A DNA stretch of 64,000 bases from Xylographa opegraphella (Eukaryota): contig JALDZX010000020.1 of assembly GCA_022813865.1 (NCBI GenBank), positions 248,001 to 312,000 of the forward strand, written 5' to 3'. The position numbers and the translations under genes are program-made. Below the pieces are notes generated by a model that was not told the origin of the DNA, did no database searches, and saw only the letters and a program-made list of their open reading frames with translations. Positions 790 through 47,667 of this stretch are shown here, one piece after another (the stretch's first letter is position 1; the number at the start of each line of letters is the position of its first letter).

Positions 790-798
790 ATTGGTGGA
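790..798 (-). promoter_or_regulatory. GARE (galacturonic acid responsive element, TCCNCCAAT; GaaR site) in the gaaA-gaaC bidirectional promoter
   Basis: ATTGGTGGA on + equals TCCACCAAT on -. It lies between the two galacturonate genes and is flanked by CreA-type SYGGRG sites on the minus strand (759-764, 775-780, 807-812). Confidence 0.75.
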
Positions 799-10268: not shown

Positions 10269-10419
10269 GTGAGAGGAGAGTACTTTGGTGCAGAGGTCAA
10301 GATTTGAGCGCTTAGCGCGCTCCGATTCACAGATTTGAGACTATCGAGCATCATGGCTTGAGAGAATGAAACCATAAATCTGTGTACTAGCTCCCAGTCC
10401 TGATGGGCAGTATGCAATT

Positions 10420-12136: not shown

Positions 12137-12329
12137 CGCTGTCAATGTGATGTCCCTATGCCGGCGTTAACGGAGGGAAAACCCGCGCGTATCTGGAAAG
12201 CGCGTCGGCTGATTTTCGGGCTTGAATTGGAACAGCGTCATTGAAACCCTAAAGACATTTCGACCAAACATGCCCCCAACATCACTCCTACGAATGCTGG
12301 TTTGACAGCCAACCAGCATTTCAATCAAA

Positions 12330-13450: not shown

Positions 13451-13652
13451 GGCGCGGGCTGGGGAGCGGGTTTGGAAGGGACGTCGGGATTAAGGTAGAA
13501 CAGGTCGCGATGACGCTAGTGATACCGTTCGTAAAGCTGAGACGTATCGTCCATATAAATCACGGTCGAAGCGTATGGTAGTGAGCCGCCCCCCCTTTAC
13601 TTTCAACATCCGCACCACCACGCCCATCATCCCACCGCCACCGCCCGCCCAC

Positions 13653-14328
13653 TCACACCGTCCTCCGATCCGTCATCACCCGCACCACGCTCCCCAGCCC
13701 CACCACCTCCACCAGCTTCTCATGCCAACTCAGCAGCACGCTCATCGCCTGCCCGCCGCCCTCCCCACCCCCTCTCGCCACGGCATGGATCTGCGAGAAG
13801 CCCGTCGGCTGCGGGTCCACGGTCCTGCCAGCCGCGGCCGGCGGCGGCTGCGACGAGTGCGACATGCCTTTGTACCTGTACGCCACGCCCGCAGCATCAG
13901 CTGTGTATTCCCATGACAACGTTCGTTCCTCCCCAGCCCCGCCCGGGCAGAGGGGCGCGGGAACAGCTCACTCACAGGTATTTCATCAACACGTCCAGGG
14001 CGTCCGCGCCCGCGGCGTCGGCGCTCATGCGCGCCAGCAGCGGCGACATCTCGGCCTGCTTGATGGACTGCAGGATCTCGACCACGGTGGCGAGGTGGAT
14101 GTCCTTGACGCCCGCGTCGCCGCCGTAGGGCGCGTTCTCCAGCGCGCCCCGCAGCGCGCCTTCGGCGTCGCCGCCGCGCAGGAGTTGGCGCACCTGTGCG
14201 GCGAGGGCGTGTGCGTCGCCGGTAGAGATGGGGGTTGGGGGGGGGGCGAGGGTGGTGGTGTCGAAGTTGGAGGGCGAGTCCGGGTCGAGGAGGTCGATGT
14301 TTATTGTGCGCCAGTTTGTGGTTGCCAT
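13653..14328 (-). CDS. arc15: Arp2/3 complex subunit 5 (ARPC5/Arc15); exons 14328-13976 and 13875-13653
   Basis: NWRTINIDLLDP, DVLMKYL|YKGM and MSVLLSWHEKLVEVVGLGSVVRVMTDRRTV. Confidence 0.92.
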
Positions 14329-14342
14329 TGTGGGGGGTGGGG

Positions 14343-14411
14343 NNNNNNNNNNNNNNNNNNNNNNNNNNNNNNNNNNNNNNNNNNNNNNNNNNNNNNNNNN
14401 NNNNNNNNNNN
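14343..14411. other. Assembly gap (N run) next to a G-rich tract
   Basis: Ns in the sequence, preceded by G-runs. Confidence 0.99.
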
Positions 14412-17400
14412 GGAAGGAGGGTTGGTGAGAGGTTGTGGGTAGAGGTTGTGGGTAACTGTAGAGTACGGTAGGTAGTTAAAGCTGTGAAATCCGCTAGGCC
14501 GGATAGATGATAGCGTAGCCCTGATTGTTTTTTCGGCTAGTGTGACGTGGTAGATAATCTACCTTATTCTCTCTCTAATCTACGATCCACCCAATCTCCC
14601 AATACAGCCGTTTTGCTATCGAGCTCCATGCTAGGAACAACATACGGTACACAGGTATCGTTCACAGCGCGGCCATGCGTCTGGAGTAGATCTCAACCGA
14701 TCACGCGGGATTGCCGACAGCAGTAGCCATCTGGCTCGTCTCCACAGCAGTGTTTAAAGTTGTGATGCACGGAATGGTTGTAGTTCGTCATATTGATCCG
14801 GCACGGCACATCCATTTAAATAAATTTTCTTAAATTCCAAACATTCAATTACGAATTATAAAAATTTGAATTTAATTCTCCCGTAGCCGACCCGCTGGAC
14901 AGATAGTTTGCATCATGAATTATGGTCGGACTCCATAGTGGTAGTGACAGCGACCACGAAGCTCATCGTAACTCCCAAAGGGCGCGGTGGATAACCATAG
15001 AAGCACAGCTTGAACAAACGCAAATTCTCACAAACAACGGGGCGCTGATGCCGGGCACCCACGAAGGAGATAAAGATACTCAAATAAGTCTACTCGACGC
15101 GATCGGTCGACCCTCGATTGCCTCATGAATCACCTCAAGGCAGACGGGCAATCACGGTCGAATCACCTGCTCACCTTCGGCATGCCACTTTCGTAAGATA
15201 CGCGGGCTTCCCATGGTTTCTGGCCTGACGATTCTTGGTTTTGGAGGGACGAGGTGGTTTTAGGAGCTTCGTGCGGGCGAGGACGCAGAGCCGGAACGGA
15301 CCCCGAGGTGAGTTTTCTTGGCAAGTAGCTTGGTGATGGAGCGATGTCGGGCTGCAGCGTATTCTTGGTAACTTGGTGGAGCTCAGGGAGAAAGTTACTG
15401 GCGAGCTTCTGGAAGCGCACGAGACGAGGACAGGAGCAGACGAAAAGGGGGTCGGATTTCGCAGTGGGTTGTATGAAAGGGGCGTTGGAGGATTTGGTGG
15501 ATTTCTAAAATCCAGATATGATCACCTTGGGTGATGGGCCTTGGGTGGGTGCAGCTGTTCGCCTTCGGTAATGGCTGAATTAGCAAACATCAATCATCCT
15601 GAGAGAATATGAGATTTATGGATCAGACCTCTCGACGCGACAACGTGCTGACTAATGGCAAGAAACCAGCGCATAGTGTGGGCGAACTGGCATTTTCAAC
15701 CCCCTCTCAGCCGTGACGCAGTCGGTTCAGAGACCGGAGGAATGCATCCCGATACCTGACCCAGAGCGCTTACCAGCGGCCGAAGCAAATCCCAAATGTC
15801 ATCCTCTGGGAGCCATGAAGGAAGAGGGGTCCAGGAGACTCGCTGATGGTGGCACACGGCTTTGCATTCCTTGCGCTATCAAAAAGGATTCGACAGCCGT
15901 TTCGTCGGAAGGATGGAAGTTGACATTGCCGGAGATAAGATTTCCACCAACCCGCCACTCGCTAGCTGCTAGGATATGGCCAATCCAGCTTTCCGGATGT
16001 TTTGTGCAGCAAGCACACGATGGGGGTCATCTGAGAGGGCTTTTTGGGATGCGAGAGTCAGCGCTCCGTGGGTCGTCCATCCGGTCTGGCCGGAGTCGCA
16101 CCGAGCGATTCGATGTAATGTAATATAATGTAATGTAAATGTATGTGCTCGTGCAAGCATCTGGGTCGATGCCAACGCAGCCTAGATTGTTCGATCCCGT
16201 CGTCGAAACGCGGCCCGGGCATGACCCAACGAAGTCCTTCAATCTTAAGTCCCACCACTCGATCGGTCTCGCCTGAGTGGCTCTGGGAGTGGCTCTGGAG
16301 ATTCCGTCTGGACAAACGCCGATGGAACGACAAAGCTTTTGCCAGATCGGGCAGGTGCCGGTTGGATAAGCATGTCCTGTGGGCGTCATCGCTGAGGCAC
16401 GGGTGCGTGGGATGTCAGTGGAACCCCCCACATGATTCTTCAGACAACAGGCTGGTCAGAGTCCGGACTGAGTCACGGTGGCGGAGGTGTATGAGCGGAT
16501 TATTGTCAGATACGAGGTGGGAAAGCAGATGCAGTCGGTGTGTAATAAAGTCATGATGGAACGAGATGCAAGCTGCAACGCGTGTAACACATAAATTCAC
16601 GAATCTTTTTATAGTAGTCTCCCTTACCTCTTACCAAACATAGTACATGCAGCATCAAATGCTTCCATTCTTCTCTGCCCGCCATCCCATGGAGAAGCAT
16701 GTACGCCGGTGCGGGTGCGGCCGGTCCGACAGGATGACAGGGACGTGTCAGCAACGAACTCGTGGCACACTACTGCCGTGTCACGCTGAGGGCGCGACGG
16801 CAAAAGGGGGGAAGGCGAAGGCGAAGGCGAAGGGCTGCGCAACGTTGATCCACGAAACAATGCAGTCATCATTCTTTCGGTGTCGCAGCCTCCTCCCCTT
16901 CACCGATCACGCACGTGGGGCGGGTGGTCGATTATGTAGCCTAATCTTAGGCTCTCTGCACCTAGTCTGTCTGCCACGAGGTTCACATGGTAACCCGCCC
17001 CCCATCTGCTCCGGCAAGGCTTAGCCACTACACCCTCCCCCCCCCCGAACTTGCGACGTTTCCGAGATGGACCGTTGCATTTCGGGGCAGCGTGAGTTCC
17101 TGCCCCGAGGCGGGGCGGTGGGAAGTGGTGGTGGCACTACCGATGTTGCAAGCTACCTTAGGTTGCCTACCTAGAGGTATTTTTCGGGACTACTACTCCG
17201 TATGGCATGTAGACTACCGTACCTACCTTACTGTGACGAAAGCCGTTTGAGGGAGGATTATTAAGGTGCACTAAGCACTACCCGTACTTGCCGGCCTCGG
17301 GCCTACGATGCTTAGCAATTTCTCCTGTAACGGGGGTGGCAAGCGAAGTCTGATGATATACCACAGTAGTACAGTAAGTACTACGTTCAATATCATCACA

Positions 17401-23952: not shown

Positions 23953-25048
23953 ATGTCCTCTCTGAAGCCCACCCGCCGCCACGGCGCCTCCACGGTTCAA
24001 CTCCCGAGCACCCAAGCAGCGCAGCCACCTCGCCCACCACCTACGCGCTCTCCTCTCCTGCCCACCCCGCGGGAAGCGCTCCTGCTCGCCATCTACCCCT
24101 CCACCCTCCTCCTCGGCTCGCTCTTCTCGCTGCTCAACCCCCTCTCGCGCGCGGCCCCCTACTCCGCCGTCCTGCAGTCCCACCCGCCCGCCTTCGCGCC
24201 CTCCTATTTCGCGCGCAAGAAGAACCTCTTCAACGTCTTCTTCGTCAAGATCGGCTGGTTCTGGACCACCCTCGCCTTCGTCGTCTTCCTCCTGCTGCAC
24301 CCCAGCACGGGCCCGCCCCGCAGCGTGGTGCTCACTCCGCGGCGCGCGCAGGCTTTCGTGCGCTACATGCTGGTGACGGCGTGGTGGGTGCTGGTCACGC
24401 AGTGGTTCTTCGGCCCGGGCCTGGTGGACCGGAGTTTCCTGTGGACGGGCGGCCAGTGCGAGCTCGTGCGCACGGAGGAGGGCAGGGATGGGATGAGCGA
24501 GACGCGGCAGTTCGTCACGGGCGCGGCGTGTAAGCTTGCCGGGGGCAGCTGGAAGGGAGGGCACGATATTAGCGGGCACGTCTTCTTGCTCGTCCTCGGC
24601 AGCGCGTTCCTGTGGCTGGAGATCCTGCCGGTCGTGATGCGGCACGCAGGGTTCAGGGAGCAGAGGCTCATCGTGCACGAGGACGGCGGCGTGAGGAGCG
24701 CGGAGGCGGAGGTGCGGACGGCGGTCGCGAAGGAGGACAGGGGGGAGGGGGAGGGGGAGGTGGAGGCGGAGACGGGGGTCAGCGTCCCCGTCGTCGTGGC
24801 CGGGTTGTCGTGGTGGATGCTGCTGATGACGGCGGCCTATTTTCATACCTGGTTCGAGAAGGTGAGTGCACATCCGTGCCGCTTGGGGGCTTGGGGGCTT
24901 AGGGGCTGGGGGGGGAAGGTTGTTGCTGATGCTGATGTGAGGACAGTTCACCGGGCTCGTGGTCGCTTTCGCGGGGCTTTTTGTCGTCTACTTCCTTCCG
25001 AGGGCGCTGCCGACTATGAGGGCTTTGGTGGGTATGCCGGGGGTATAG
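23953..25048 (+). CDS. scs3: FIT-family acyl-CoA diphosphatase (Scs3-like); exons 23953-24861 and 24947-25048
   Basis: YFARKKNLFNVFFVKIGWFWT, TQWFFGPGLVDR, GGHDISGHVFLL and MLLMTAAYFHTWFEK|FTG. Confidence 0.92.
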
Positions 25049-25244: not shown

Positions 25245-25550
25245 CTGTCGACCTTCAATCAATGGGCTTGCTCTGCCGAAGTTCTTTGGGCACTTTCTAT
25301 GGAAGGAGGGTTGCTGATATGGTGGCCTGTGTTGATCTGTCAACTAAGGGGTATGCTCTCCCGAAGTTTCGGTGGCACTTCTGACGGGACGAGGGGATGG
25401 TTCGTTGATTTCGCAGCCTCAATTTGTCAACCTTCCTTGATATGGTGGCCTGTGTCATTGATCAACCTTTGTTGAATACGGCGGCCTGTGTCTATCTATC
25501 AACCAAGGGGTATGCTCTCCCGAACTTCCTTTGCCACTTCTTCTCTATGG
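25245..25550. repeat. Degenerate local tandem/modular repeat
   Basis: AAGGGGTATGCTCTCCCGAA is exact at 25346-25365 and 25505-25524. TGATATGGTGGCCTGTGT is exact at 25315-25332 and 25438-25455. Further diverged copies lie near 25262 and 25475. Confidence 0.8.
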
Positions 25551-31036: not shown

Positions 31037-31292
31037 AGCAAGATGGATCGTTTGGGATTCTCAATTGATGTGATTACCTGTGCCTCAGAATGCATCGCGA
31101 TGGCTGGGGTGGGGGTTTGGTAAGGAGCGTTTGGAATTGAGTCGCTCTGTGCGTTTCTTTTTCTCCATGTACATATTACTTCTTCAACTTTATAATCGCA
31201 ACGGTAAAGGAGGTCCTCGGCGTTTTCGAACTTTTCATGGCTCTTGTGAAGCTGAGGTGTTACACAATAGGAAGAAATACTGCGTGGTCGTC

Positions 31293-31444
31293 TGTTGAGG
31301 TTCTCACCTTCACAGGGTAATTGAGGGGCCATATCAGGCTAGTCACTGGTATCAAAAGGTATCCGTGCCCTTGGTGCTCTGGTGAATGGCATGGAGGGTA
31401 CCTCAGAACTGGGCTTTATATAGAGCGGAGGATTTCTTGCGGTA
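31293..31444 (+). mobile_element. 5' part of an older LTR copy, interrupted by the Tc1/mariner element
   Basis: Starts TGTTGAGGTTCTCACCTTCACAGGGTAA, one mismatch from the solo-LTR start at 41810. Also shares TATAT.GAGCGGAGGATT with it. Confidence 0.8.
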
Positions 31445-31613
31445 CAGTGGCCTTCGATTCCGGTGTCCTCTTGATGAACTCTCTTTAATTTTATCTAAGC
31501 CACACTTAGTCAGCGCTAGACTAGATATGGTTAGTGCTTTATCTCCTCATCGCGATAGCCTCAGGTTAGTAGCCGCTGCTTTTGCTTGATGTAATTTTAG
31601 TCTCTGTGCTGAC
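31445..31613 (+). repeat. Left terminal inverted repeat (imperfect, about 170 bp)
   Basis: 46 of the first 61 nt match the reverse complement of the right end with no gaps (hand count). Further shared blocks: AGCCTYAGGTT, GCTGCTTTTG, CTCTGTGCTGAC. Confidence 0.85.
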
Positions 31614-32522
31614 CTAAATCGGAAGTATTGTTGCAGACAACAATACTTCCTATTTAACGGCAGCAGCAAGAATTGGCTCCACATCTTTCGAAGGCGCAGA
31701 TTAACTCAATCATTGGCACGAATTCAGTTACAGTACAGTATCACACCTAATATATATTTCAAGGTTCGCCGTCTGCTCTCATGCGGCTAAGGACAACACA
31801 TTCTATTGTTGTCCACTACCAATGACTGGCTCTCAATTTGTTCCAGGTGGGCAATTTCAAAATCTTCGAGACTATCTGGTAAACATTTATATCTACCGAA
31901 TAAAGATAGGCGAATATTTTACTTCTTTTTGATGTTTTGGGCTTGACAGCTTACTAGCCGCGCCGTTTAACTTCCGCAAAACAATTCATCATTCTCTTAA
32001 CAGCACCTCTGCCTGTCCGCTTTCCTGGCCTACTATGCAGGAAAGCACCCACTATTCTTCCGGGATCCGAATCAAAGAATGGAAGGTCAAAGACAAGGCA
32101 TAAGAAAGCGTTAAGGTATTGATTTTGGTCGCAAGTAAGTATTCATTGAGTGACAAGAACATTGTACAGAATAGACCAGCTTTGGAAGCGAAATCGACTA
32201 CGAAACAATGCAGTATAGCATCGTGATAATGGAAGGAAGGATGCGAAAATGTTGCTCCTAGGATTTTGTGCTACCGGAGACAATAAGAATGGATTAAATC
32301 TATGAGGCCTTTCCTTTGAAGCACCAAGTTGCCATAAACACATGTCTCAGTCCGGAGGAAAATATCGGCCAAGTACACTTCCTCGCCGAGTCCAGGTCGA
32401 CCAGCCTTCTCATAGTACTCCGTCCAGCGTATTTGATTGCTTCACGCTTCGTTCTCTAGGGGAAAGAAGAACGATTTCTCCTGGATTTAGCGTTGTTAGT
32501 CGACATGAATGACGTTATTGCA

Positions 32523-35500
32523 CTATTTACCAGCACCAGAAGATTTCAAAAGCGCTACAATCTGCAAGTGGCCACCCTCAGCAGCTGCTTGCAACGCCGT
32601 ACGTCCCATATCATCAGTAGCAGCAGCATTGACATCAGCCTTGGCATCGAGCAGCCTCTGAACGACCTCGAGGTGGCCACCCNNNNNNNNNNNNNNNNNN
32701 NNNNNNNNNNNNNNNNNNNNNNNNNNNNNNNNCATTGACATCAGCCTTGGCATCGAGCAGCCTCTGAACGACCTCGAGGTGGCCACCCTCAGCAGCATAT
32801 AAAAGCCCATACAATAGTTCTTTCTGGTCTTGAACTAAGCCAATCAAGATGTCTATATAGTTCAGGCGACCAAGTCTTGCATGACAACAGATCAATCCAA
32901 TTCTTCCCGCAGAATTGAGTTTAGCAGAAGTAACAAATTGTAGAAAGACAGCACAATGGTCGTGCGTGTTAAGCCATTCGTAAATAATATGGCTTGGCTC
33001 GTAGAAATCTTCCGGTGCCCAAGGCGTTGTCACCAGATCTTGCGAGCTGCGTATCATTTTCTTCCAAAGACTCCAAGTTCTAGATTTACCTTCTTCAAAG
33101 ATACAGGTGTGAGATAGCCAGTAGCTTTGAGCGTACTCGAGAAACGGGTGTCCTAGCTGTAACGTAGTCGTCGAGTCTTGAAGACGATCATTGATTATCA
33201 TCATGTCTTCCTTATCACTCTTGATATTACGATAGACGTGAGCACTTAGCTTCTGCTTCGCACGTATTATGCGCGTAGTGATATCCTCTCCTTCCAAAGT
33301 TTTCTCAATGAGATAGTTCGGAAGTCGAGTTGGCAGTGCTGCAGGTCTTCGGACTAATGCTGTCTTAAGGTCATTTGAGTTGAGATAGGTTACACATATC
33401 TCTCCAATAAAGTGATTAGCTTCCGCCAAATTAATGTGAAAACCGAGGAGACTCGAATCAGATGATGGTTCGAAGAGATGCTGAAGGACACTGCGATGTA
33501 TGAATTGAACAATTTGGAACTCCTCGTCTAGTTGGACTAGATTCTCGCACCAGAAAGTCATGCGCTCTAGACCGGTTGGTGTCCTCCCCGTGATGGAATA
33601 AGGCGTGCCAGGCTCATATGAAAGAGCCTCCCGCAGCTCGCCAAGTGTGAGTGCTCGTTTGGTTGCTGCAACCCACCGAAAAATATCGATAGCAGTTTTC
33701 GCAGAGGGACGCTTCGAGATCCGTCTCATAGCGCGATCGAACGTTTCTCCTATGCTTTTAGGAAGATTTAAAAGCGCTCTGCGGATTTCATTATCGCAAG
33801 TACATCCGCATATCTCGGCAATTTGAATGTCAACCCAAAGGAACCTGCCAAATTAGCAAAGCTAATTGATTGTTAAGAGTAACCACTCACATCCCGTTTG
33901 CACCATTAATCAATGCTTTGATAATTTCTTGAGCCATAGCAGGGTCCGTTAACATGAGTCGTTCGTGTATGGGAACTTCTTCCTCCTGTCTTAGGGCTAT
34001 GTTCTCTCGGGTGTATGTCTTAATATCGACTCCTACTTCACCACAGTCGGTAGACTTCTCGTGAGATCTTGGGAACCAATTTCGAACGGCTGCTAACATG
34101 CTGCTTCGGCCGACAAGAAAAAGCTTCACACTAGAATCTGGACGTGATATAACAGATGATAGAACTCGTAGAAGGGTATGGCGCTCCTCATTTTCGAATT
34201 CGTCCAAAGAATCAATAACAATGTACAAGGTAGCAAATTTGCTGGTACAGTACTGAAGTAAGGTCTTGGTTGTCTCCATAACTTTGCCATAAGTCTTAAG
34301 TTCGCTCAGCTGTCTCTCAATTTCCCCGGTTATATCGTCAGGTTCAAGGCACTGCCGGATGATAGATCTTAATACAGAGATGGCACTAAGTGATACAGAG
34401 TCATCATAGCGGGAGAGAACGAAAGCGGTCAGCTCATCAGTCCTTTTCCTCTCACGATAGAGGTACTCAATAACAGCCGATCTAAATCGTTGTTAGCGAG
34501 GTACACTCAGAAAATAGAACAAGTACTAGCGTAAGTACCGTCTTCCCCGACCCGACTACGAGCAGTTTAGTATAGTCTTAAAAGCAAGCGACAGAACTTA
34601 CTCTTCCCGGTCAAGAAGAATACCGAGGGTTTTCCATCATCCTTCCACTTGGTGAATTCTGTGGTAGAGAACAACCACATTGCTGTATTGACATATCGCT
34701 TTTTACGAGCCTGATAGAAGTTCTTTTGGTGTTCGTACGTTGACAAAGAGTCAAGCAATCTCATTCTCTTCTCCCCTATTTCAGTTCAGATTAAAATCGC
34801 CAAAAGAGCTATTCGAACCTACTTAAAAGGACCCGATCTCTACGCCTTTGCCATTCTCTGGCATTTTCAAGCTCTTTTTGAGCTCGTGACGTGAAATTTG
34901 ACAAATGCTTTCTGTGGTTGTCCGCAAGCTTTCGTTCTTGCTCCTGGAGATCTTGTTCTTGTCGATCAGACGTTGCTTTGGCTAGAGCAATTGCTTTCTT
35001 AACATCTTTGGCGCAAATCTGGATGTTCTCAAGCTGGGGACGAAGTTTGCTGCGCAACTCCGTTGTGACTTTCTTTATCCCTTCAGTCTTTAGGTTAGCA
35101 AAGCTCGCTGCAAGAGGTTATGGACTTATGGTCACTTGCATGGCTGCCGTGTTAGCAGGATACTCTGCTGGCACATTTGAACAATGGAGGCATGGAATGT
35201 ACATATTGATTCCTGAAGTTTAGATGAGTGAGGAAAGAGAAGCTGGTATTCCTCAAGTTGGGGAAAAAATTTATTGAGACCCATAAACAGATCCGCGAGA
35301 GACTCATAGTACGAGGTAATGTTGGCTGCTATCTAGAAGTAGCGTTAGGTTCAGCTCAAACAGCGTTGTGCCTCTATGAAAGTCTCAACAGATGCCTTAC
35401 GAGTACTGTAAGCTTGACACTTCCCCATACAAGTGCCGCAACATCCGGGTGGCTTGAAACGAAGGTTTCAACGATCGCGGAGAATTGCTGAACTGACTGC

Positions 35501-35742
35501 AGCATTGAGAACGCCCGCGCGCCGATGCTTCTTCCTCGTCTGGTCGTATTCGATGCATCGAGCTTGGCAGTGAAGATGAGTGCCGCGGAAGCATCGGGAA
35601 CTTCTTTAATCTGCTGCAGCTGCTTCCTCTCATCGTCAGTGAGGACGCTTCCGAAGTCTGAGAGCGCAACTTCGAGCGACTTCATCACCGATCCGTCGAT
35701 ATTACCTGTCCGAGGCGTGCGACCGAGAGCGATGAGAGACAT
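32523..35742 (-). CDS. NLR-like NACHT-ankyrin protein (N-terminal helical domain, NACHT, winged helix, ankyrin repeats); exons 35742-35401, 35332-35140, 35080-34823, 34775-34602, 34555-34531, 34481-33891, 33844-32523
   Basis: Splices into an open frame. N-terminal AALVWGSVK motif, Walker A TGKIGSGKT, Walker B YIVIDSLDE, GMFLWV, LPKSIGETFDR, HPFLEYA..YW..H, and ankyrin GRTALQAAAEGGHL. Needs two GC donors; an N gap (32683-32732) lies within the repeats. Confidence 0.85.
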
Positions 35743-36324
35743 CTTTCAGCGATTGCAATCTGCCGCCAACGACCGCGCGAGTAGTCCTGGAGTCAAGTAG
35801 TTGGCGATGCGGAACGGCGGTGATATAGGAGACAAGCTCTACAGTAGATCAAAGCAGTACAAAGAGCTAGATAACTGAAATTGACATCTGTCGAGAGTCA
35901 AGAGACAGCCTTAAAGGCGAAAGAATGAGGAAATGGGATAAGGCTGTGGCCCTGCGCCTTGGGTCTGAGCTGCGGGGCATATTTTTCAGCTCTCAGCCAC
36001 CACCGGACGGACGCCTCCTATGGCATTGTTAATTCTGTCATGTGACCGTGAACTGCCTCGTTCTCGAATAGCACCAAGCTCCAGAACTCATGAGTTAAAA
36101 TCAAGATAGAGTATAAAACAATCAAAAGCGCCCAAATAAGTCATATAATTTATATAACACATGTTTTGTTTCGGTCCTAATCAATCTATTTACTATGTTT
36201 TCACACCCTGGATCATCGTTGGGTGCGGCACAAATCACCAGTCCACATCCAAGCGATGTCAAAAAGAGCAAATTATAAGTGACACAGCATGCATTGCACA
36301 ACGGGCCTTCTGCAGGAATTCAAG

Positions 36325-38483
36325 TCAGAAAGGACGGATGAGCTGATCGAATGGCATAATGTCCCTCGTGGCCACGACCAAAACTCTCCAATTCTGACAG
36401 AAGGACTTCTCTCCTTTTACCTCGTTCACTCCCTCCCACGCCAGACAAACATTCGCTTTCTCGTCAAGCTTTGCGACTCTCGTTTGATTAAGCTTTCCTG
36501 GTATCTCCAAGTAGTCCAACCAAAGGCCCGGCACGGGTGCCTTAATAGCTCTGGACGGCTTCCGATCCATATATCGAAGCTTCCCGGAGAATATTCCAAG
36601 GAAGTCTCCAGGAGCAACCGAGACCAGCGGAGATATAGCTATTTGTTTTGCTAAGGCAGGCTTCTTGCCAATGACCCTTTTTCCAGATTCGCCTTCATAT
36701 GGAACCATACCAACGAAGATAGACTTGTTACTCGCAAGCTTACCCTTAACACCATGACAGAGGATATACTCGTTAGATTTTCCAGATGTAGCCATCTCAT
36801 TATGATTGGCGAGGAAACGTTCGTATTCTGTTTGGTCTTGATTCCAAACGCTGATATCATTTGCCCAAGCGCCTGTTTGGGCCGTACGAAGTCTTTCGAA
36901 GATGCGCCGATCCTCAATGTCACACCTACCGGAAAAATTAGCTCCCTCTTCAGCTATCACCCTTAGCCGCAGTTGTTGAAGACGGAGGTCCAGAACATGA
37001 TTCTATGAGAGTAGCAAGTCGAATTTCTTGGTATAGCGAAAGAAATGTGCCTTGAATTTACTGCAACGGTAGAGAAGTAAGGAAATTGCTCCCTTGAGCC
37101 GGAGTTCTGACAATAGCTTCCAATAGGATGTCCATTTGCAGACATTGTCTCTGCAGGTGCCGTGGCCTATCGCAGATATGAGCTGTTTAGCGGCAATTTT
37201 CTCCTGCGGAGTAATCTCTGTTTTTCGACCGGGGGGAACAGGAAGTGGGCCAATCATCTTGGCCCGCTGTTGAATCATAGGCCAAAAGTAGGTTTCTTTC
37301 CACAGACTACGCTGTTGGGCTCTGGTATCATTAGCTATTGCTTTCTCGATAGTCTTGATCACGTTTGCGTAGTCGCTATCCTCCTTGAATTCGCCTGTTA
37401 GCTCGGTTGATTCAGAAATGGTATCTAGTAATTCCTTCTCTGCAAGGATTCTGATATCCAGATGTGCAATTGTACTTTCTGTGTTCTTCTTCAAGCGTTC
37501 TGTATACTGCTGTAAGTTGATTTCTGATGCAAGCCGTGCCGGGAGAGTCATGTTCATCTGTTGGCGATCTTCAGCGATGCGCTCTATCTCATGTCGTTCG
37601 AAGTTCCGCAGTCTTTCCTGCTCGATGTCGAGCATTGCTTGGCCATCTGACGATTGCGTCTAACGCAATTCACAGCGACACTCATCAAGATCTTCGAGTA
37701 GTCTGTGGAGTCGCTCTCTAAATAGTCTAAGACGCCTGGAACATGGGAATCAGGTATACGACTTGTATCATCTGCCTTATCGAGCGCCTTCACCACGTCC
37801 TCTAATCGATGACCCGATTCATCGAGGATAGGTCGTTTCGCAATCTGTATCGTCGCACTCGGCAGATACTTGTTCGCAATATCCATCTTGTTGGTATGAT
37901 CTGCGGTGAAGATGCTTGTAAGGAGATTTGTGCTAGGCTCGGAGCTCGTGGATTGCTTCGGAGAGTCCATCTGAGAGACGTTCTCATTGTCTGCAATTGG
38001 CGACATGTCAAGTGCTGACGTATCGTCCACAAGTCTCATGTCGAGAGGAGAGCTAGAGAAATACCCATCGAGTATATCCAATCCATCTTCATGATCGAGT
38101 GTCATACAACCTCCTTCCTGTTGTTGGTCGAGAGGCTCCTGGTCAAGCGATAACAAATTTTCACTAGGGCACTGGTGCAGCGTGTCGTTCGTAAGAGCCT
38201 CTGATGCCTCGGACTCGATCGGTGGAAAGACCGCAGATTCGGAGCGTGGGAAGTCGTTGATGGTATATTCGCTACTGAGGGGATTTTCAACAATAGACCC
38301 CGCAGGAATGGACTCACTAGGAGCTGTAGGCTTTCGTCGCTTGGATCTGCTTGCTCCACCGCTTTGCATAGCAACATAAGATCGTTTCTGTAAGGACGAC
38401 GCCAAACGTTCGGAGGTGCGGCGGGCGTCGAGTGTCTCATTCCCTATTGATGCAGGACTTCGGGGAGGGGTTTGGGGAGACAC
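36325..38483 (-). pseudogene. Decayed fungal protein with a C-terminal SET-like domain (transposon cargo; start uncertain)
   Basis: The C-terminus GDFLGIFSG...GKLN...ANV...VLVVATRDIMPFDQL resembles SET-domain motifs. Frameshift near 37714 and in-frame TAGs at 37662-37660 and 37005-37003. Confidence 0.65.
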
Positions 38484-39234
38484 GAACTCGATGGGACACG
38501 AAGTAAGCCCTGCTGCTCCATTCTTCTCGACACAATGGTTTTGGACAGTGATAGCTTCAGTGAAGGACTTGGAAGTCGAACCGGCTTCTACTTACTGATT
38601 TGACCAAGACGTATTATCAGCTCAGGGAGATCTTCTTCTTCAACATCCGGTAAATGGAGGATGCGCAGCATTCCACGTACACTTGGGGCCAGCTGGTCAA
38701 TGACTTTCTCGGCCATTGTTACATTAGTGGTGAGTGCATTATGACAACCGTCGCATGCTATGTTAAGAAACTGCTTCGATGGTCTTCGGTGATTGTTACA
38801 AATGGGTGGTTCTATTACTAAGCATTGTCTGAATCGTCAGACAATCAATCGAAATACTCTGAAACGATGCTTCACAGTCAAACCTCAATCAGAAATCCGA
38901 ACCACCACCTCAGACTTACTTTCTGAGCGCAACTGTTCCATCGTAGAGTCATTGGCGTCTTCATCGAGGTTCTGGTGAAGCTTCGAGTCCGGAATCATTC
39001 CAGCTGTTTCCCAATGCCAAGACTATGCAACGCACGGACCATGTTCATTGAGGTAGCGGATTGACAGAAGGTTTCTGTGTGCGACAATGCAACCTCCGCC
39101 AGCGTCTGCCAGTGTCCGCGAGCATTATAACTCCGCGACACCTTTGCTAACACAACGTAGCGCCTTTTCTAACATGGCCAGGTAGGAGATTCGGTCGACT
39201 TCGTCCCACGACGGGCTCATTGATTCCTCCTCCA

Positions 39235-40506
39235 ATGGCGAGCATCCTCTCCAGTCCCGAATCGTTCGACGATGGGCAGTGGGATCCTTTCGAGGATGAT
39301 ATTCCTAGCCAGCAACAAACACAACAAGCAGACCAGCTTGGCTTCTGTCAGCTCTCTGACTGGGACGAGGGGAAGACCTACAATGAGCACCCGCCAACCT
39401 GCTTACACTACTCGATGGAGTGGAAGCTTAGGATAAACAATAGGGAAGTTTCCAAGGAGACAGAGCAAGATCTAGTGCTAGCACCAGCGTCGTACTGGCG
39501 TCTATTTCTAAAGTCTAAGCTCGAGGAAGTTGTGCTCCACAAGATTAGAACGAAGAAGCGAGACATGAAATCTGAGGATACCAAGATTGTGATGACAGTC
39601 ACACAACAACGCTCCGAACCTCCTCTTACCAAAAGTTTCGATGAAATAAATATTGATTGGTCAGTTGTAGAGACGCAACTCATCACATGGGGATATCTGT
39701 TTCTTGCGGGCAAGAAACTCAGAGTGACCATTTCATTCAATTACAATTACGTAGAGGCAGGTCAGCCATCGGCCACGTCAAAGAATATTAACCAAAGGGG
39801 CTCCACGACCCAACGGATGCTCACTGAGCTAAATACAGAGCTTGATATAGACGAAGGGCTGACTGGGCGACCAGCTATCTGGAAGGCCGTATATGAGACT
39901 ATGCGGTGTCCTGGTTCTCCATGTGATAAAGGACCACATTGCTGGTGTGACCCTGTTGGCAAGAAGCATTACCCGTTAAGGCCACGCCACTTAAAGAGCT
40001 TTATAAGGTTTGTAGAACAAGGTGGCCTTTTGGAGTCACACTCTGATGTGCCGGACTACATCCGTCAGCAATTATATGCAGAAGAACAGCACTCACTTGC
40101 TGCGAAGCGGCAGAAGAACGCTGGCACGTCCGTAGCAAACCTTCCCCCTATCCATATTACGAATACGATGCCCACATCGTCTTGTCAGAGCTGCCAGCGA
40201 AAGCTCTCATCTGATTTTGAGATGCCTCCCCGGAACTCCTCTCTTAGTATCCCTGGGTTTCGTGACAAAGCAGTAGAAGAGTATTGTGCCTGGCACCAAT
40301 CGAAGTTTGAAAATTCAGAGCACAGAGTAGAGTATCAGAAAGCTCAGGACGTAATGAAGGAAAACGCTATGACCTTGTAACTACTCCATCGGGAACCAGA
40401 TCCAGACTTCCTGATCAAGGGAGGCGTCAAGAGGGGGGCTGCGTTACATCTGGTGAATGATATTGAAGAATGGCTTCAGCAATGCAAGCGAGTTAGAACT
40501 GAGTAA
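39235..40506 (+). pseudogene. Cys/His-motif protein convergent with the transposase, with a premature stop
   Basis: ORF from ATG 39235 with CPGSPCDKGPHCWCDPVGKKHY. TAA at 40378-40380 is followed by 41 more open, protein-like codons (LLHREPDPDFLIKGGVKRGAALHLVNDIEEW...) to TAA 40506. Confidence 0.65.
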
Positions 40507-40583
40507 TGACCAGGAGAAAGCTATAGATAGGTGCATGGATCTAGTCTGATTTTCTTGGTCTTAAATTTAAGTTATGTCTGATC

Positions 40584-41560
40584 TTACAGCTCATCCATTT
40601 TCAAACCTGCGTGTCGGAAGTGGCCCTGGGCACTTTGTTCCCGTTTCCCAACCACGTCAACGCACCACTCCAAAAAGTGATCAAAGCCTTGGCTTGGATT
40701 GGCTTCGTAGACTTGCCAGTGCCGTTTAATGAATGCTTTTAGTTCTGCAAAGAATTCTTCGATCGGATTGAGATCCGGAGAGTATGGTGGCAGATATAGA
40801 AGTTTAACCCCAGCATCAGCACACATCTGCGTGATTCGATCTGTGTGGTGAAAAGATGCATTATCCATGACCAAGACCGACTTTGGCTCTGGCCATCTAC
40901 CACATAACGGCAGCAACTGACGAATGAAATCCTCAAAGAATTCGCTATCTGTCGTACCCTGGAAGATACGACTAAAAATGATCCCATCCACTGTGTATGC
41001 TGGCAGTATTTGGTATCGTTGTTCACGTTGAAATCGAGCGATTTGAACAGGAGTTGTTCTACTGGGGGACCAGCCAGTCCGCTGGAAACCAATACGTTTG
41101 TCGTAGCCGGATTCACTACAAAGACAAAGTGCTTGGGGGAGAGACTTGAAATCTGGTATAGATAGTGGTCACGTAGATCCGTATTCCGTCCATTTGCAAT
41201 GCGACGGATTTGCTTCTTAGTCTAGCCCCTTGAATGTAGCGCTCTTCCAATACTAGAAGCTGTTACAAGGACATCGAACTCGTCTGCCAGAAAGAGTATC
41301 ATTTCAGACTGATACAGTCCAGATTTTTCTAGCAAATGTTCACAAAGCGCGTCTAACATAGCAGGTGTGATGCTTCGCTTTCGCCCTCCCCCGTTTCGAG
41401 GGGCTTGAGGGGCGCCATAATGTCGGATATTTGACTGTATCCTTCGTACCCCACGAGCACTACAGTTAGCTGCTGTTGCGATCTCAGAATTAGTGAATGA
41501 GCTGCTTGAAATCATGTCAGTTATCAAAGTAACTTGCGACTTCGCAAGACGTGGTGCCAT
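40584..41560 (-). pseudogene. Tc1/mariner-IS630 superfamily transposase (HTH + DDE, DD34E), inactivated
   Basis: N-terminal HTH region, FVFV[D]ESG, VLVMDNASFH-x-LPPYSPDLNPIEE (34 residues between D and E). TAG at 41224-41222 and a 1-nt deletion in the first catalytic Asp codon (about 41115). Confidence 0.92.
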
Positions 41561-41608
41561 CTCTGGCTGACTGCTGTTGAGCAGGAGGAGTTGTTGAGAG
41601 TTACCAAA

Positions 41609-41767
41609 GTCAGCACAGAGCCAAAATCAAAAGCAGCAAATTAAAACCTAAGGCTGAAACTAAGTAAGTGCCGAAACTAGCCGTGTTAGGCTTAGTGCTC
41701 ATTGTGGTGTGGCTTATGCAAATCTACAGACAGTAGATAAAGAGGACACTGCAATAGAATCCCACTG
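41609..41767 (-). repeat. Right terminal inverted repeat
   Basis: Reverse complement begins CAGTGGGATTCTATTGCAGTGTCCTCTTTATC. Its inner end lies about 50 nt upstream of the transposase ATG. Confidence 0.85.
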
Positions 41768-41809
41768 TAGAAGGCGTGTTTAATTCATGTTATTATTTCA
41801 CCTACAGAC
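41768..41809 (+). mobile_element. Continuation of the older interrupted LTR
   Basis: GAAGGCGTGTTTAATTCATGTTAT matches GAAGGCGTGTTCAACTCATGTTAT in the solo LTR, just downstream of where the 31293 fragment stops. Confidence 0.75.
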
Positions 41810-42176
41810 TGTTAAGGTTCTCACCTTCACAGGGTAAGGCCGGAGGACGGAGGAGTCATCCCACCGTGCTCCTAGGCCTCGGCACAGGACCACTATGCAG
41901 GGTGCTCCTGGTGCTCCTGGTGCTCCTCCTAGGAGCACCTAGAGCACAGAGAACAGGACTTCTATATCGAGCGGAGGATTCCCTTTGTTATGGAAGGCGT
42001 GTTCAACTCATGTTATGATCTAGCTTATAGACTAAGAACCTTCAATACAATTCTGTACGAAGACTATTATTTCTTTAAGAACGATAAGCCTGTTACTGTG
42101 CCTTCCTATTCACTTATTGACGAATCCAACCCAGATCCTTGATTGAACTGTACCAGTGAGATTCAGGATCGTAACA
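41810..42176 (+). mobile_element. Solo LTR (367 bp) with 5-bp target-site duplication
   Basis: TGTTA...TAACA termini and CAGAC at 41805-41809 and 42177-42181. Internal (GGTGCTCCT)x3 with an inverted AGGAGCACC copy. Confidence 0.9.
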
Positions 42177-42773: not shown

Positions 42774-45700
42774 ATGTATGTAGTCCTGAATGACATTGAG
42801 CCTCGTGTGAAGCTTTCAAAGACTGACTGGCTAAAGAGGGTGACGGCTGATAAAATCCTTCAACAATACAAAGCAAGAAATCCCACGGAAGACGTCGTTC
42901 TAAGGAGCAACGGCCGTATTGTTGGCAATGAGACGATGAAAATGCTGGATGTGCATGGTGACCAGGTTATTGCTTTCGAGGGCATCAAAAGATCGGATGT
43001 ACACGTACCAGCTGCCGGTACCACCTCGCGAAAGCCACTCCATCCAAGCGGACGGCAAATATCTCAGCCACGTGTCTTATCACCAGAGCCAGCCTCGTTA
43101 GCTTCAGATGTGAAGAAAGAACAGAAGTCGCTGTTCCCAAACGCGAAGGTTCACGGACATCTTCGCAGTCCCAGCAAACCTAAAGTTAAGTCGGAAGATG
43201 CCTACCGCTATCGCACTGACACAACCAACGAGAACATACCGCCTTCCTCCAAGATCTCACCTTCATCACAGCTTGCAACCGCGGCTACAGCCTCACCATC
43301 AATGAGGCCAGTACCTCAAACCTTCCATCAAGCCAGCAATGAAGGCGGTACTGGACCGTTTCCGACCGAGATGACGGGATGGGCAGTCAATCCGCCGTTC
43401 ATGAGGTACCTACAGCTATGTCACATCAGCTGGAAATCGCGAATTGTTGGCCTCCCTGAAGAAAGAATTCAAAGTCTAGCATGGGAGTCATGGAGATTAC
43501 TCACCTGAGGATGTTCCTGCACCCTCATTACTGGATCGAATTAGTTCATCATCAACCATTCACTCTTCCCTTCCACCCCATCAATCGTCAGGTGGCGTGT
43601 CGCATTCCGTACGACCAAATAAGATAGACAAATCGGATATCGGATTCATGACCTGGCTTGCGAAAATGCGTGAAACGCATCTTCCAGTGAATGAGAGAGA
43701 TAAAGCAGCCCAAGAGCAAAAGGCCTGGGTGTCTTGGATGATGTTTACTCCTGAGCAACGAGGAGCATACTCTGCTTCTGTAGCCTCCAGTTCTCAGCAG
43801 AACTTGGAGAATGATGCTATGTCTGAAATTGATTTCAAAGATCAATTCGCCACGAAAGTCGAGTCGACAAGTCAGACTGAGGACCAGCAGGCAAAAACGT
43901 TTCAGCTTCAGAACCTCATAGCTGATGCTAGTCTTGACGTTTTGGAGAAGAGTGTCGAAAGAGGTGTGAAGTTCCTCGATGATTTGAAGGGGCCTCTTCT
44001 AGAAAAGGTCGAAAGTAGTGAAGACGCAAAACAGTGGGTGCAGCAAATTGACAAGCTTCGAAACCAAGCTGTGAAGACCAGAACCGTTATCGGTGTGGTA
44101 GGGAACACTGGCGCGGGTAAGAGCTCGGTGATCAATGCGATGTTGGACGAAGAACGATTAGTGTAAGTTGAATCGCACATCGACAATGAACGCAACTGTA
44201 GAACCACTCTAACATTTGGCAGACCTACTAATACCATGAGAGCCTGTACCGCTGTTGTAACCGAGTTGTCCTACAACTATGACGATGACGCCTATCGTGC
44301 TGAGATTGAGTTCATCACGATTGCAGACTGGGAAAAGGAGTTGCAGATCCTTTTCAAGGATCTATTGGACGATAATGGGAATGTTTCTCGTGACTGTGCA
44401 AATCCGGATACCGATGCTGGTATTGCGTACGCCAAAATCAAAGCCGTCTACCCGAAAAAGACCAAGGAAGATATCAGCAACAGCAATATCAAGGGGATGT
44501 TGCAAGACGTTTCCCACCTCTTGGGAAACACTAGGAAAATCAGGGAGAGCGATTCGCTGATGTTCTACGAACGCCTGCAGCATTTCGTGGACAGCAAGGA
44601 AAAGGTGACAGGCAAGAAGGATAAAGACAAGAAGAATGAACCCAAAGAAATGGAGTTCTGGCCATTGATTAAAGTTGTCAGGATTTTTGTGAAGTCCCCT
44701 GCTTTGGCAACAGGTGCTGTCATCGTGGATCTTCCAGGAGTTCACGATGCCAATGCTGCGAGAGCGGCAGTTGCAGAAGGATATATGAAACAATGTACCG
44801 GGCTGTGGATTGTGGCTCCCATCATTCGTGCAGTTGACGACAAGGCTGCCAAGAATCTTCTTGGAGAATCTTTCAAAAGACAGCTCAAGATGGATGGCGG
44901 TTTCAGTTCGGTCACCTTCATTTGTAGCAAGACCGACGACATTAGCTTGACGGAAGCTTCTGACTCTCTCGGGCTTGACGAAGTGAATGGTCCTGCTTGG
45001 GAAGAAATGGATGGGTATGCTAAGAAGCAAAAAGAACTGAAGAAAGAGCTAGAAGTATTAGGTCAGACCAAGACCGTATACGGTGAGACCGTGGCGGACG
45101 TTGACGAACAACTCGAGCTCTGGGAGGAACTCGAAGCTAAGATCAAAGACGGAAATACAGTTTATCCTCCGAATCATGACAAGAAACGCAAAAAGAGTGC
45201 TGCGGAAAGTCCAAGAAAGAAAGCCAAACTTTCGCGTGACGATGATGACGATGACTTTATAGATGATGAAGAAGAGGTCGTGGAGGAGGATGACGACGTG
45301 GAAGAGGAGGACGAGACCACATCCAGTACAAATCCTCCTTTGACTGAAGAACAAATCACGTCCAAGATCTCCGAGTTACGGACAACAAAGAAGGAGGGTC
45401 GTCGACAGCGTACAGAACTGGACCAGAAGATGAAAGCAATCCGAACAGAGATTGCTGCTGCTAAAGTAGCAGAGGAAAGAATCGAAAGCCAAATTTCCAA
45501 GGTTTGTATCGAGGGAAGGAATGCTTATAGCAAAAGTGCTATTCAACTAGATTTTGCAGGTAAAGTTTTTATTACGCAGTCTATGGGTTTTGTGTCCATG
45601 CTAACTGGTGCCTTAGCTGGAATGAAGGAACTTGATCAGGAAATCGCCGCTGAGGACGACGAGGAGAATTTCGATCCCGAAGCGGACATCCGTGATTACG

Positions 45701-47667
45701 ATGAAGTGGCCCGTTCTCTTCCCGTCTTTTGTGTCTCATCCCGTGGATACCAAAAACTACAGGGTCGGCTCAAGAAGGACCCAGCCGTGCCAGGGTTCCA
45801 ATCACTCGAACAGACCGAAATTCCTCAGCTTCAAGCACACTGCAAGCAACTGACTGTTGCAGGTAGGACGACAGCATGCAAGCGCTTCATGACAAACTTG
45901 AGTCAGTTGTTGAATTCCATGAACCTCTGGGCGTCAAATGACGGTACGGGTGCGAATCTCATGCCGGAAAAGCGGGCCAAGGAGGCTAAATTCTTGCAAA
46001 AAAGTCTGGAGAATCTCGAGAGTGTAAGCGGCCCTCAGCTGAAGTAGGATCTCCGTCTGTAGAACTCTTGAACTGGCACAGTCAACCCTTTTTCTCTCTC
46101 TCTTTGATGTACCCCCACCACATTTCTTCATGCCTAAACCCTTACTTACCATCCTCGCGTTCCATTTCTTTCGACTCTGACTAATCTACCTAGCGCCTCA
46201 CTAACCCAATCCCCTTTGTAGGGCCTTGAAAAGATTATTTCGACAGTTGTCAACGATCTCAAAGAGGAGCTCGCCGACAACATCTTTGACAAATATGAGA
46301 CAGCAGTCCCCCATGCCCTGGTCAAGGCAACCCGGACTTGCACTGACTGGGGCCGACCTGTCAATCGCGAAGACAGAGCGGCCGGTGGTTACTTCTGGTC
46401 AAGCTACAAGGCCGTCTGCCGACGGAACGGAGTCTACGCCAACGCGCAAGGCCCACACGACTGGTAAGGACTGTTGCTCCCGATGGACCTAGAATGTTAT
46501 TGTTGACCGATCAATAGGAACCAAGCCCTGTCGGATCCTATGCTGAAGACTCTTGCTGGTGGGTGGGAGCGAACCTTCACCCGTCGTGCTCCGGCAGTCC
46601 TTGCTGGTCTTGCTAAGAACGCTGGCAACTTGTTCAGCGCTTTCCACCAAGACATCGATGCGCGCGCACGTAGAACAGGCGCCAGTGTTGCAGGACTGCA
46701 CATGTTGCAGCAGCAGCTCCAAGTTTATGGGGACATCTTCAAAGATTTGTTTGCCACTACCAAGGAGAGTATTGATAACCAGCAAAAGGATATTAATCGT
46801 GAATTTGTTCCAGTAATTGAGAAGGCAATGGCCGAAGCTTACGAGATATGCACCAATGAGAGAGGTGAGTTATATCTATTGCACAAAGTGCAACAACTGA
46901 CAAGGTGGTAAGGATCTGGATCGTATGCCCGAATGAAGGCTGCCATGAATGCACATGTCGAGAGACAGAGACATACAATGTTCGCAGACAGCACCAAGGA
47001 AGTGCAGAAGAAATTGAAAGCCATGCTTCGCGGAGTGGAAGAAACCATGTCAAACAAGGCTGATGAGGTCTTCATTGCGATGAGTCGAGACTACCGATCC
47101 GTTCTCGGTGGCGGAGACGTCCCTCATGGAGAGATGATGCCCAAGTGGCAGCGTGCAATGCGTAGGGAAGTCAAAGGCGTTATCAACAAAGCAGAGAAGA
47201 TATTCAAGAGGATAGCGGGGATGGAAGTCGAGGATGACGAGGATGACGAGGACGAATCTGAAGTTGCAGCGTTGGGCCGTGCTGGTAGCCCATCGTCTGA
47301 TGAACGGGTCAAGCAAGAGGAGAACCATGGGTCGGAAATGCAAGGCATCGTCTCCGGAGATACTGCTGTCAAGGCCGAGAATGAAGCAGGCTCCCCATCA
47401 GCCGGCATCGACTATGGTCCTGATGTTAAGATGGAAGTGAACGATGAAGATTCGGGTGAGGAGGACGCTGCACCCGCTGAAAGAGACGAAGAAGCCTCCG
47501 CTTCCGCCCATCATAGTGCAAGGTCGTCGCTTGAGGCAAATGAGCACGAGTCATCACCAGAGGTTCAGCAAGCCTGCAATCAAGAATCGACCACGAGCGA
47601 CGAAGATGATGCATATGACAGCGTGGCAGGCCTCTCGGAGGAGAGCTCTGTCGAAGACGACGCCTGA
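42774..47667 (+). CDS. Dynamin-superfamily / SLIP-GC-like large GTPase, multi-exon, with a frame break near 43500
   Basis: G1 GNTGAGKS, G2 PTNTMRACT, G3 VDLPG, G4-like SKTD, coiled coils and an acidic tail. Introns at about 44163-44222, 45560-45617, 46024-46221, 46464-46517 and 46865-46912. Confidence 0.8.

Follow-up and report, generated by a model that had tools for sequence, protein, structure and literature searches.

Fungal repertoires of NOD-like receptors (NLRs) differ greatly between species, and the routes by which such receptors are gained are poorly understood. NLRs are common cargo of the Starships, elements of tens to hundreds of kilobases that are moved by a tyrosine recombinase with a DUF3435 domain. 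A usual Tc1/mariner element measures 1.3-2.4 kb and has one gene. The ToxhAT of wheat pathogens, as far as its published account is drawn on here, is a 14.3-kb class II transposon bounded by terminal inverted repeats (TIRs) (PMC6737239). Here, we analyse a stretch of 64,000 nucleotides of the lichen symbiont Xylographa opegraphella (assembly GCA_022813865.1, contig JALDZX010000020.1, positions 248,001 to 312,000), called the window in the following. It contains one insertion of a Tc1/mariner-type element of 10,323 bp (31445-41767) with four genes: a transposase, a Cys/His gene, a gene encoding a SET fold and an NLR. We hold with moderate confidence that this is a young Tc1/mariner insertion from a Helotiales-like pool, which is now decaying and in which the NLR has stayed open by chance or through weak constraint.

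The ends of the element are well defined. On the left, the sequence reads TA, then CAGTGGCC; on the right, it reads CCCACTG, then TA. Ends of the CAGTG type next to a TA duplication are the signature of Tc1. A repeat search placed the inverted arms at 31443-31613 and 41609-41769, and alignment extends them to ∼330 nt, with 77% identity across 338 alignment columns and 24 of the 30 terminal bases matching. The inner part of the left arm mirrors the 5' end of the transposase, including its decayed start region. When the two flanks are joined, they match a repeat unit to the right of the element straight across the junction (77% over 84 nt). This unit, at 41950-42033, is a paralogous empty site and supports a single insertion. 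In contigs of sequencing run X5, from an organism we call B, likeness to the window stops precisely at 41769, beyond which the sequence is unlike. This confirms the right terminus and indicates that the copy of organism B sits at another site.

The original prediction, made from the sequence alone, had proposed a TIR-bounded element with a dead transposase and an NLR inside as passenger. The inverted ends, the TA duplications and the boundary in run X5 bear this out. Its limits of 32523-41560 are those of the outer genes, and the element proper extends beyond them on both sides. Among the hallmarks of Tc1/mariner elements, the DDE_3 and helix-turn-helix (HTH) domains, the TA duplication and the inverted repeats are all present; the catalytic triad is not intact, and size and gene number depart from the usual. 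A scan of the left end for bacterial promoters and terminators, with models unsuited to a fungus, returned nothing. At metagenome locus L006, the left end (TACAGTG...GTCCTCC) bears no significant resemblance to the end of the window element. The host sequence around the insertion is a tandem-like repeat of ∼223 bp (31292-31434 and 41770-42033), whose units share blocks of 29-41 nt at 80-97% identity; it may be the end of another transposon or a satellite.

The transposase, which runs on the minus strand from an ATG at 41560 to a stop at 40586-40584, matches PF13358 DDE_3 (E = 9e-27) and HTH_32 (E = 1.6e-4) in Pfam and is 71% identical to an intact transposase of 338 residues at metagenome locus L004. 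A TAG at 41224-41222 takes the place of a Trp that is present in intact relatives (L004 reads GWSKK). The codon of the first catalytic Asp is down to two bases at 41116-41115 (FIDESG in L004, FV-gt-ESG in the window). Both lesions had been predicted. Judged by them, the transposase is dead, and the element is a dead member of its family, without autonomy.

The neighbouring Cys/His gene is convergent with the transposase, and its protein is 85% identical to homologue P0055 (422 aa). As originally noted, it has a premature stop: a TAA at 40378-40380 (CAA>TAA) replaces a Gln (MTLQLIH in P0055). Beyond it, 41 codons are open and alike up to the native stop, and the TAA cuts these 41 residues off a C-terminal helical domain. 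The family is large and belongs to Ascomycota, with 208 matches and many multi-member clusters; it has no Pfam domain match. Foldseek against the PDB returned nothing at E ≤ 0.001 for the Cys/His protein, the top rows being beta-grasp proteins with template modelling scores (TM) by query of 0.11-0.16. Residues 337-422 gave a SAM-like five-helix match in VIA-align with Z 5-7, under the trust level of the tool, and the Atlas yielded Ascomycota clusters without a name and a SAM-domain lead of 0.79.

A metagenome scan yielded 14 loci, including L003 and L004, which look like one element sampled twice. In nine of the 14, the Cys/His gene is followed by a convergent transposase, as in the window; both genes are present and rearranged in L013, and the remaining four loci are truncated or too short. 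The shared stretch of L004 and L005 comprises only 2.95 kb, which is the gene pair (85% identity), and the window and L001 likewise have only the pair in common (79-81%). Because the Cys/His gene is paired with the transposase in these nine loci, and because the pair is the only part shared between elements, we conclude that it is the transposon's own gene. It is the core second gene of the transposon family and not cargo, as had been assumed, which allows the large Ascomycota family to which it belongs to be interpreted as a transposon gene. Searches for element termini in L004, L005 and L001 did not find them. The core of L001, the closest metagenomic relative, is embedded in DNA of 19-34% G+C (1-4000 and 8001-15655), which looks either degraded by repeat-induced point mutation (RIP) or AT-rich.

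From the left arm to the Cys/His gene extend 7.5 kb of passenger DNA, which consists of the SET-fold gene and the NLR. In the SET-fold gene, a frameshift and two TAGs had been reported. The frame does change at ∼37636-37641, where homologue P0294 is unbroken, and in run X2 a contig that matches 37534-38843 at 98% identity contains an additional G behind 37636, which leaves the window with a 1-nt deletion. One TAG, at 37005-37003, stands where P0294, P0295 and P0298 have Trp. The other TAG, near 38588, is not counted as a lesion here because it lies inside a possible GT-AG intron of 41 nt (38595-38555). Judged from their reading frames, the transposase, the Cys/His gene and the SET-fold gene are all three pseudogenes.

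The label 'SET-like' given to this gene is right as regards the fold; the gene is at most a candidate member of the enzyme family. The C-terminal 225 residues were modelled with a predicted local distance difference test score (pLDDT) of 88.4. Foldseek found 179 matches in the PDB at E ≤ 0.001, and each of the 50 rows listed is a SET-domain methyltransferase or a complex containing one (E about 1e-5, TM by query 0.33-0.42). Pfam gave no match for the SET-fold domain of the window or for P0295, P0298 and P0329. The canonical SET motif comprises NHS/C and a Tyr, with a His after the Asn. In the alignment of the gene family, the invariant Asn is kept and is followed by Val at the position of the His in SET proteins. 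A relative of the SET gene adjoins the Cys/His-transposase pair in L014.

Table 1. Features of the element and its insertion site, in window coordinates.
Feature	Position	Strand	Basis or remark
Left TA target-site duplication	31443-31444	.	Junction ttgcggTA then CAGTGG; flank runs on into paralogous unit
Left terminal inverted repeat, starts CAGTGG	31445-31720	+	Inverted-repeat search and pairwise alignment
DUF7708-NACHT(NPHP3_N)-WHD-ankyrin NLR gene, 7 exons, 6 introns	32523-35742	-	Pfam, tblastn of homologues
NLR exons 1-3	35742-35401; 35332-35140 (or -35164); 35080 (or 35107)-34823	-	Homology-based model
NLR exons 4-7	34775-34602; 34555-34531; 34481-33891; 33844-32523	-	Homology-based model
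NLR intron 5, GC-AG, donor GCTAGT, branch GCTAAC, acceptor TTTAG	34482-34530	-	Sequence and homologue frame
50-N assembly gap in ankyrin array	32683-32732	.	Between two identical 56-nt segments
Passenger pseudogene, C-terminal SET fold (predicted)	36325-38716	-	Homologue alignment, contig comparison, structure model
Cys/His gene, second conserved gene of transposon family	39235-40506	+	Homologue alignments, metagenome loci
Tc1/mariner-type transposase pseudogene, HTH and DDE_3	40584-41560	-	Pfam, alignment to L004
Right terminal inverted repeat, ends CCCACTG	41440-41767	-	Inverted-repeat search, alignment; overlaps transposase start
Right TA target-site duplication	41768-41769	.	Junction sequence
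Uninterrupted paralogous copy of insertion site, within ∼223-bp repeat	41950-42033	+	Repeat search, flank alignment

The fourth gene, the NLR, was modelled by tblastn of homologues P0002, P0003, P0004 and P0006, which are collinear with the window and define seven exons. The six introns measure 68, 59 (or 56), 47, 46, 49 and 46 nt, and every one of them has a CTAAC-like branch. The spliced model includes a Walker A (GKIGSGKT) and a Walker B motif (IVIDSLDE) and matches NPHP3_N (E = 1.2e-13), DUF7708 and Ank in Pfam, with the whole architecture visible on P0006. There are no stops across 2,847 assembled coding bases. The claim of an intact NLR thus holds insofar as the frame is open through six introns and Walker A and B are kept. 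The assembled part of the frame can be read as open with two weak points, the GC donor on which intron 5 depends and the 50-N gap, which prevents a check of the frame.

Donors of GC-AG introns usually stand in the context AG|GCAAGT. The sole donor of intron 5 is a GC (GCTAGT, 34530), preceded by a micro-exon of 25 nt with Walker A, and only splicing at GCTAGT yields GKTVLT|SAVIEYLY as in P0004 and P0006. If intron 5 is retained, translation meets a stop after 21 codons. Intron 2 offers two donors that both keep the frame: GCAAGT gives RQPW|IKKVT like P0004 and P0006, and the canonical GTATCC gives QQT|SFANLKTEG like P0009. The public model of this gene, P0001, seems to skip intron 5 via a 25-nt intron, which adds LVLVLFSE after the P-loop, and also differs from the homology-based model at intron 2 (ESISMQVTIRIKKVT) and over the gap of Ns. 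The public model is probably wrong, and its 25-nt intron and its intron across the gap are probably annotation artefacts. The Tricladium model P0002 reads through the intron 5 site, which is spliced around in P0003 and P0009; the unusual GCTAGT donor may therefore be old, shared and tolerated. In the Tricladium model as annotated, part of the N-terminal domain is missing.

Assembly breaks within the repeats of NLRs, as at the gap in the window, are typical. Taken literally, the 50 N break the frame of the NLR, and a gap of 49 + 99n bases keeps it. The 52 codons past the gap are open and end like the homologues.

The window itself is host DNA. For a P-type Ca-ATPase gene in a single exon (5262-8861), identity is 100% to X. 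opegraphella and 89, 87, 84 and 84% to four congeners, and falls to 76% in Lambiella and 73% in Ptychographa, an order that matches the species tree. All 25 named hits among the 120 Ca-ATPase matches listed are from genera known as lichen-forming; of these, the class was looked up for Xylographa. Since the Ca-ATPase tracks Xylographa and the NLR exon (33852-32789) is 100% identical to P0001, a 933-residue NCBI protein of X. opegraphella encoded on a contig of 380,353 bp, the contig is a genuine piece of lichen-fungus chromosome rather than a contaminant.

The NLR does not follow this phylogeny. Its exon is 85% identical to Tricladium varicosporioides, 57-66% to other Helotiales (48% to Coleophoma) and 35% to the sole other Xylographa match. 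In a quick maximum-likelihood tree of 27 rows, with lineages checked by taxonomy look-up, the NLR of the window pairs with Tricladium at a Shimodaira-Hasegawa-like approximate likelihood-ratio (SH-aLRT) support of 100. The pair falls within a clade of 13 rows (support 100) with 11 named Helotiales, counting a Sclerotinia row that we take to belong to this order, and one row without a name. The Ca-ATPase, a conserved gene, differs by 11-16% within the genus Xylographa, so a divergence of 15% across classes in the NLR points to horizontal arrival. Most likely, the element or its immediate ancestor arrived from a Helotiales-like fungal pool. In a recent preprint, as far as it is drawn on here, Tc1/mariner elements account for most of 5,518 transfers inferred in fungi, and Leotiomycetes are among the enriched groups; the word 'Lecanoromycetes' has 0 occurrences in its main text (10.1101/2025.06.16.659975).

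Contigs of four sequencing runs, found via the NLR, match the element at 93-98% identity and derive from other organisms and from air, peat and moss samples. The comparison counted 1,512 differences, 40 of them listed, and 57 indels, 12 of them listed. This closeness suggests that the insertion is young, and the composite is probably both foreign to its host and recent. In organism B, one contig spans 32768-36022 with 168 differences and one gap, and another spans 40444-41769; position 37230 is joined to 39458, which amounts to a 2,227-bp deletion in the SET and Cys/His sequence. In organism C (run X8), contigs turn into unlike sequence at 34750 and at 35000, inside the NLR, where ∼250 nt (34751-34999) are replaced by unlike sequence, which may disrupt the gene. 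The copies of organisms B and C decay by different routes.

The earlier suggestion that the stops arose by RIP-type mutation found no support. RIP is indicated by TpA/ApT > 0.89 together with (CpA+TpG)/(ApC+GpT) < 1.03. In 1-kb windows, the indices within the element resemble those of the flanks, the sole exception being 34001-35000 at 0.98/0.98. Among the differences listed, 22 are specific to the window (10 GC>AT, 9 AT>GC and 3 transversions), and nearly all of them are seen in every run covering the site. The excess of C>T/G>A belongs to the copy of organism B (205 versus 111). All three nonsense changes are CpA>TpA, yet of the five transitions that can create a stop, three need that context. 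RIP on the element is not supported.

In five places, namely the window, L001, L004, L005 and L008, the sequence reaches 3.9 kb or more upstream of the Cys/His gene. In three of them (window, L004 and L005) an NLR lies on the opposite strand, and no NLR was found upstream of the Cys/His gene in L001 and L008. The receptors belong to different classes: the window has a NACHT-ANK, L005 a NACHT-WD40 and L004 an NB-ARC-TPR, which is present two times there, in inverted arms of ∼3.8 kb. As the element ends were not found in L004 and L005, carriage of an NLR is shown for the window only. The arms of L004 (758-4617 and 8205-11958) are 74-91% alike and surround an intact Cys/His-transposase core; with one NB-ARC-TPR NLR each, they may be giant inverted ends or a palindromic NLR locus. 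In L005, WD40-repeat sequence lies inverted on both sides of the core (7205-8108 and 1-401), and further right is an open reading frame (ORF) for a MULE transposase (8843-9925; PF10551, E = 2e-23).

How, then, did the NLR frame stay open? The reading that we favour involves one insertion, at 31445-41767, of a 10.3-kb non-autonomous Tc1/mariner-type transposon that most likely descends from elements circulating in Helotiales-like fungi. Its core is the DDE_3 transposase and the convergent Cys/His gene, and its passengers, between the left inverted end and the core, are the SET-fold gene and the NLR. Disabling point lesions have hit every gene but the NLR in this genome, and in a young insertion chance alone would leave the 2.8-kb NLR frame free of stops in about one case out of ten to twenty, weak constraint perhaps adding to chance. 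Anatomy, lesions, single insertion and the odd phylogenetic place of the NLR are observed directly; transfer, youth and the lack of strong selection are inferred. In the NLR coding sequence, 3.5% of substitutions create a stop. For the lineage of the window, ∼73 substitutions are obtained either by halving the 5.2% divergence from the copy of organism B or by dividing ∼51 amino-acid changes by 0.70; the neutral probability of a stop-free frame is then about 0.07. Scaling from the other three genes, with five lesions per ∼4.7 kb, 3.1 lesions are expected in the NLR, and the Poisson P(0) is 0.045. The 11 coding differences specific to the window comprise six non-synonymous and five synonymous changes (binomial p = 0.21 against 0.70). 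What was first proposed, purifying selection on the receptor once the element had been immobilised, is thus not shown. Several points nevertheless weigh against a decay driven by chance and against the history attached to it. The NLR differs from the copy of organism B by 5.2% of nucleotides, the rest of the element by 6.9% (p = 0.0035). Polarised amino-acid changes on the window and on the sister (Tricladium) side number 35:55 in the NLR and 26:11 in the Cys/His protein (p = 0.0017), and outgroup-invariant NLR columns changed in 6/258 versus 29/598 (about twofold depletion, p = 0.09). The NLR contig of organism B is continuous but for one gap, while its SET/Cys-His sequence is deleted. Moreover, the direction of transfer is read from the nesting of the NLR in the tree and, like the timing, is not established, and further copies, possibly autonomous ones, may exist in this genome, our analysis having covered the window. 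The first four of these points, like the low P(0), speak for cargo domestication, in which purifying selection in the host would have kept the NLR after immobilisation and the other genes decayed neutrally. They are hints that fit some constraint and do not prove it; the sister sequences may stem from different genomes, and the pattern was picked by eye after the fact. The chance of a stop-free frame, the balance of six to five changes, the weak GC donor, the unreadable gap, the break-off of organism C contigs inside the NLR and the truncated N-terminal domain in the Tricladium model all tell against it. The evidence for selection is weak, and we regard host domestication as possible but unproven and, on balance, unlikely.

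It is about equally unlikely that the NLR is dead like its neighbours, through an unspliced intron 5 or through an ankyrin array that is out of frame or truncated in the gap. The GCTAGT donor follows TAC and is far from the usual GC-AG context, read-through would end the protein shortly after the P-loop, the public model dodges this splice with an implausibly short intron, and a literal gap shifts the frame. Against this, the branch of intron 5 (GCTAAC) is perfect and its acceptor is TTTAG, the variable treatment of the same site in P0002, P0003 and P0009 suggests an old and tolerated donor, and the sequence past the gap is open, with a homologue-like end that a gap of suitable length would leave in frame. 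A different idea, to which we assign a somewhat lower probability still, is that this transposon family habitually carries NLRs and that the NLR serves the element and not the host, such that elements whose NLR works would have an advantage in spread or persistence, e.g. through cell death or recognition. The presence of an NLR of another class in each of three of the five places fits this, as does the fact that L004 and L005 have a core of 85% identity next to different NLRs. The sample is small, however, it includes two places without an NLR and two without known ends, and the adjacency could reflect insertion bias, NLRs often lying in transposon-rich regions. In a broader and tentative version, which we consider improbable though less so than these three, a two-gene Tc1/mariner family habitually acquires diverse NLRs and ferries them between fungal classes, in this case from Helotiales-like fungi to a lichen-forming Lecanoromycete, with the receptor outliving its vehicle in at least two genomes. 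Contamination by, or a chimeric join with, a Helotiales genome might be suspected as every close relative of the NLR is from Helotiales. This is highly improbable: the flanks join through the paralogous repeat unit, the same contig carries the Ca-ATPase that follows the Xylographa phylogeny, and the foreign part stops exactly at transposon termini with TA duplications.

Elsewhere in the window, a long ORF pair with a P-loop lies to the right of the element at 43480-46047 and is a host gene; it has weak matches to dynamin-type and other GTPase models (E 6e-4 to 5e-3). A further assembly gap of 69 N lies at 14343-14411. G+C content rises to 62-68% at 12001-14000 and 24001-25000 over a background of ∼50%, and two direct repeats of 66 nt, 83% alike and spaced by 159 nt, occur at 25317-25541.

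Taken together, the element of the window is a real and unusual Tc1/mariner composite with NLR cargo, for which ToxhAT and the Starships are the closest known kinds. The literature searched did not turn up any Tc1/mariner element described as having an NLR on board. Like ordinary fungal Tc1/mariner elements, it has a DDE transposase, a TA target and ends of the CAGTG type known from Tc1; unlike these, its family possesses another conserved gene, and the copy in the window includes 7.5 kb of passenger sequence. A 2014 study by Dyrka and colleagues is said to describe fungal NLRs with highly conserved C-terminal repeats. The NLR of the window shares with such repeat NLRs the N-terminal effector-type domain, the NACHT and the near-identical ankyrin repeats (two 56-nt segments, 100%); it differs from them in that it sits in a transposon and is probably foreign to the host lineage.

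The likeness to ToxhAT, in the part of its description used here, extends to a size of 10-15 kb, TIR boundaries, several non-transposase genes including one of NLR type (patatin-TPR in ToxhAT), movement between distantly related fungi and a transposition machinery of its own that is decayed or nested (PMC6737239). According to the same source, ToxhAT differs in its hAT-like transposase, its TIRs of 74 bp and its effector gene, ToxA (PMC6737239). The window element instead combines a DDE_3 transposase, TA duplications, arms of ∼330 nt, a Cys/His partner and a DUF7708-NACHT-ankyrin NLR, and no effector gene was seen in it. With the Starships (PMC9156397, PMC11162782), it shares the character of a fungal mobile element that moves host-type genes, NLRs included, within and between species. 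Unlike them, it is 10 kb long and has a DDE transposase, and no DUF3435 domain was found by Pfam on the scanned ORFs of at least 80 aa at 32635-41626.

The element offers a testable case of cargo capture by a host after the death of the vehicle. If the broader version, that of a family which habitually acquires NLRs, is true, small DNA transposons, and not Starships alone, would be a route by which genes of fungal innate immunity spread horizontally and are later captured by hosts. A compact cut-and-paste carrier that moved an NLR from one fungal class to a lichen symbiont of another would represent a simple vehicle of receptor exchange beside the Starships and ToxhAT.

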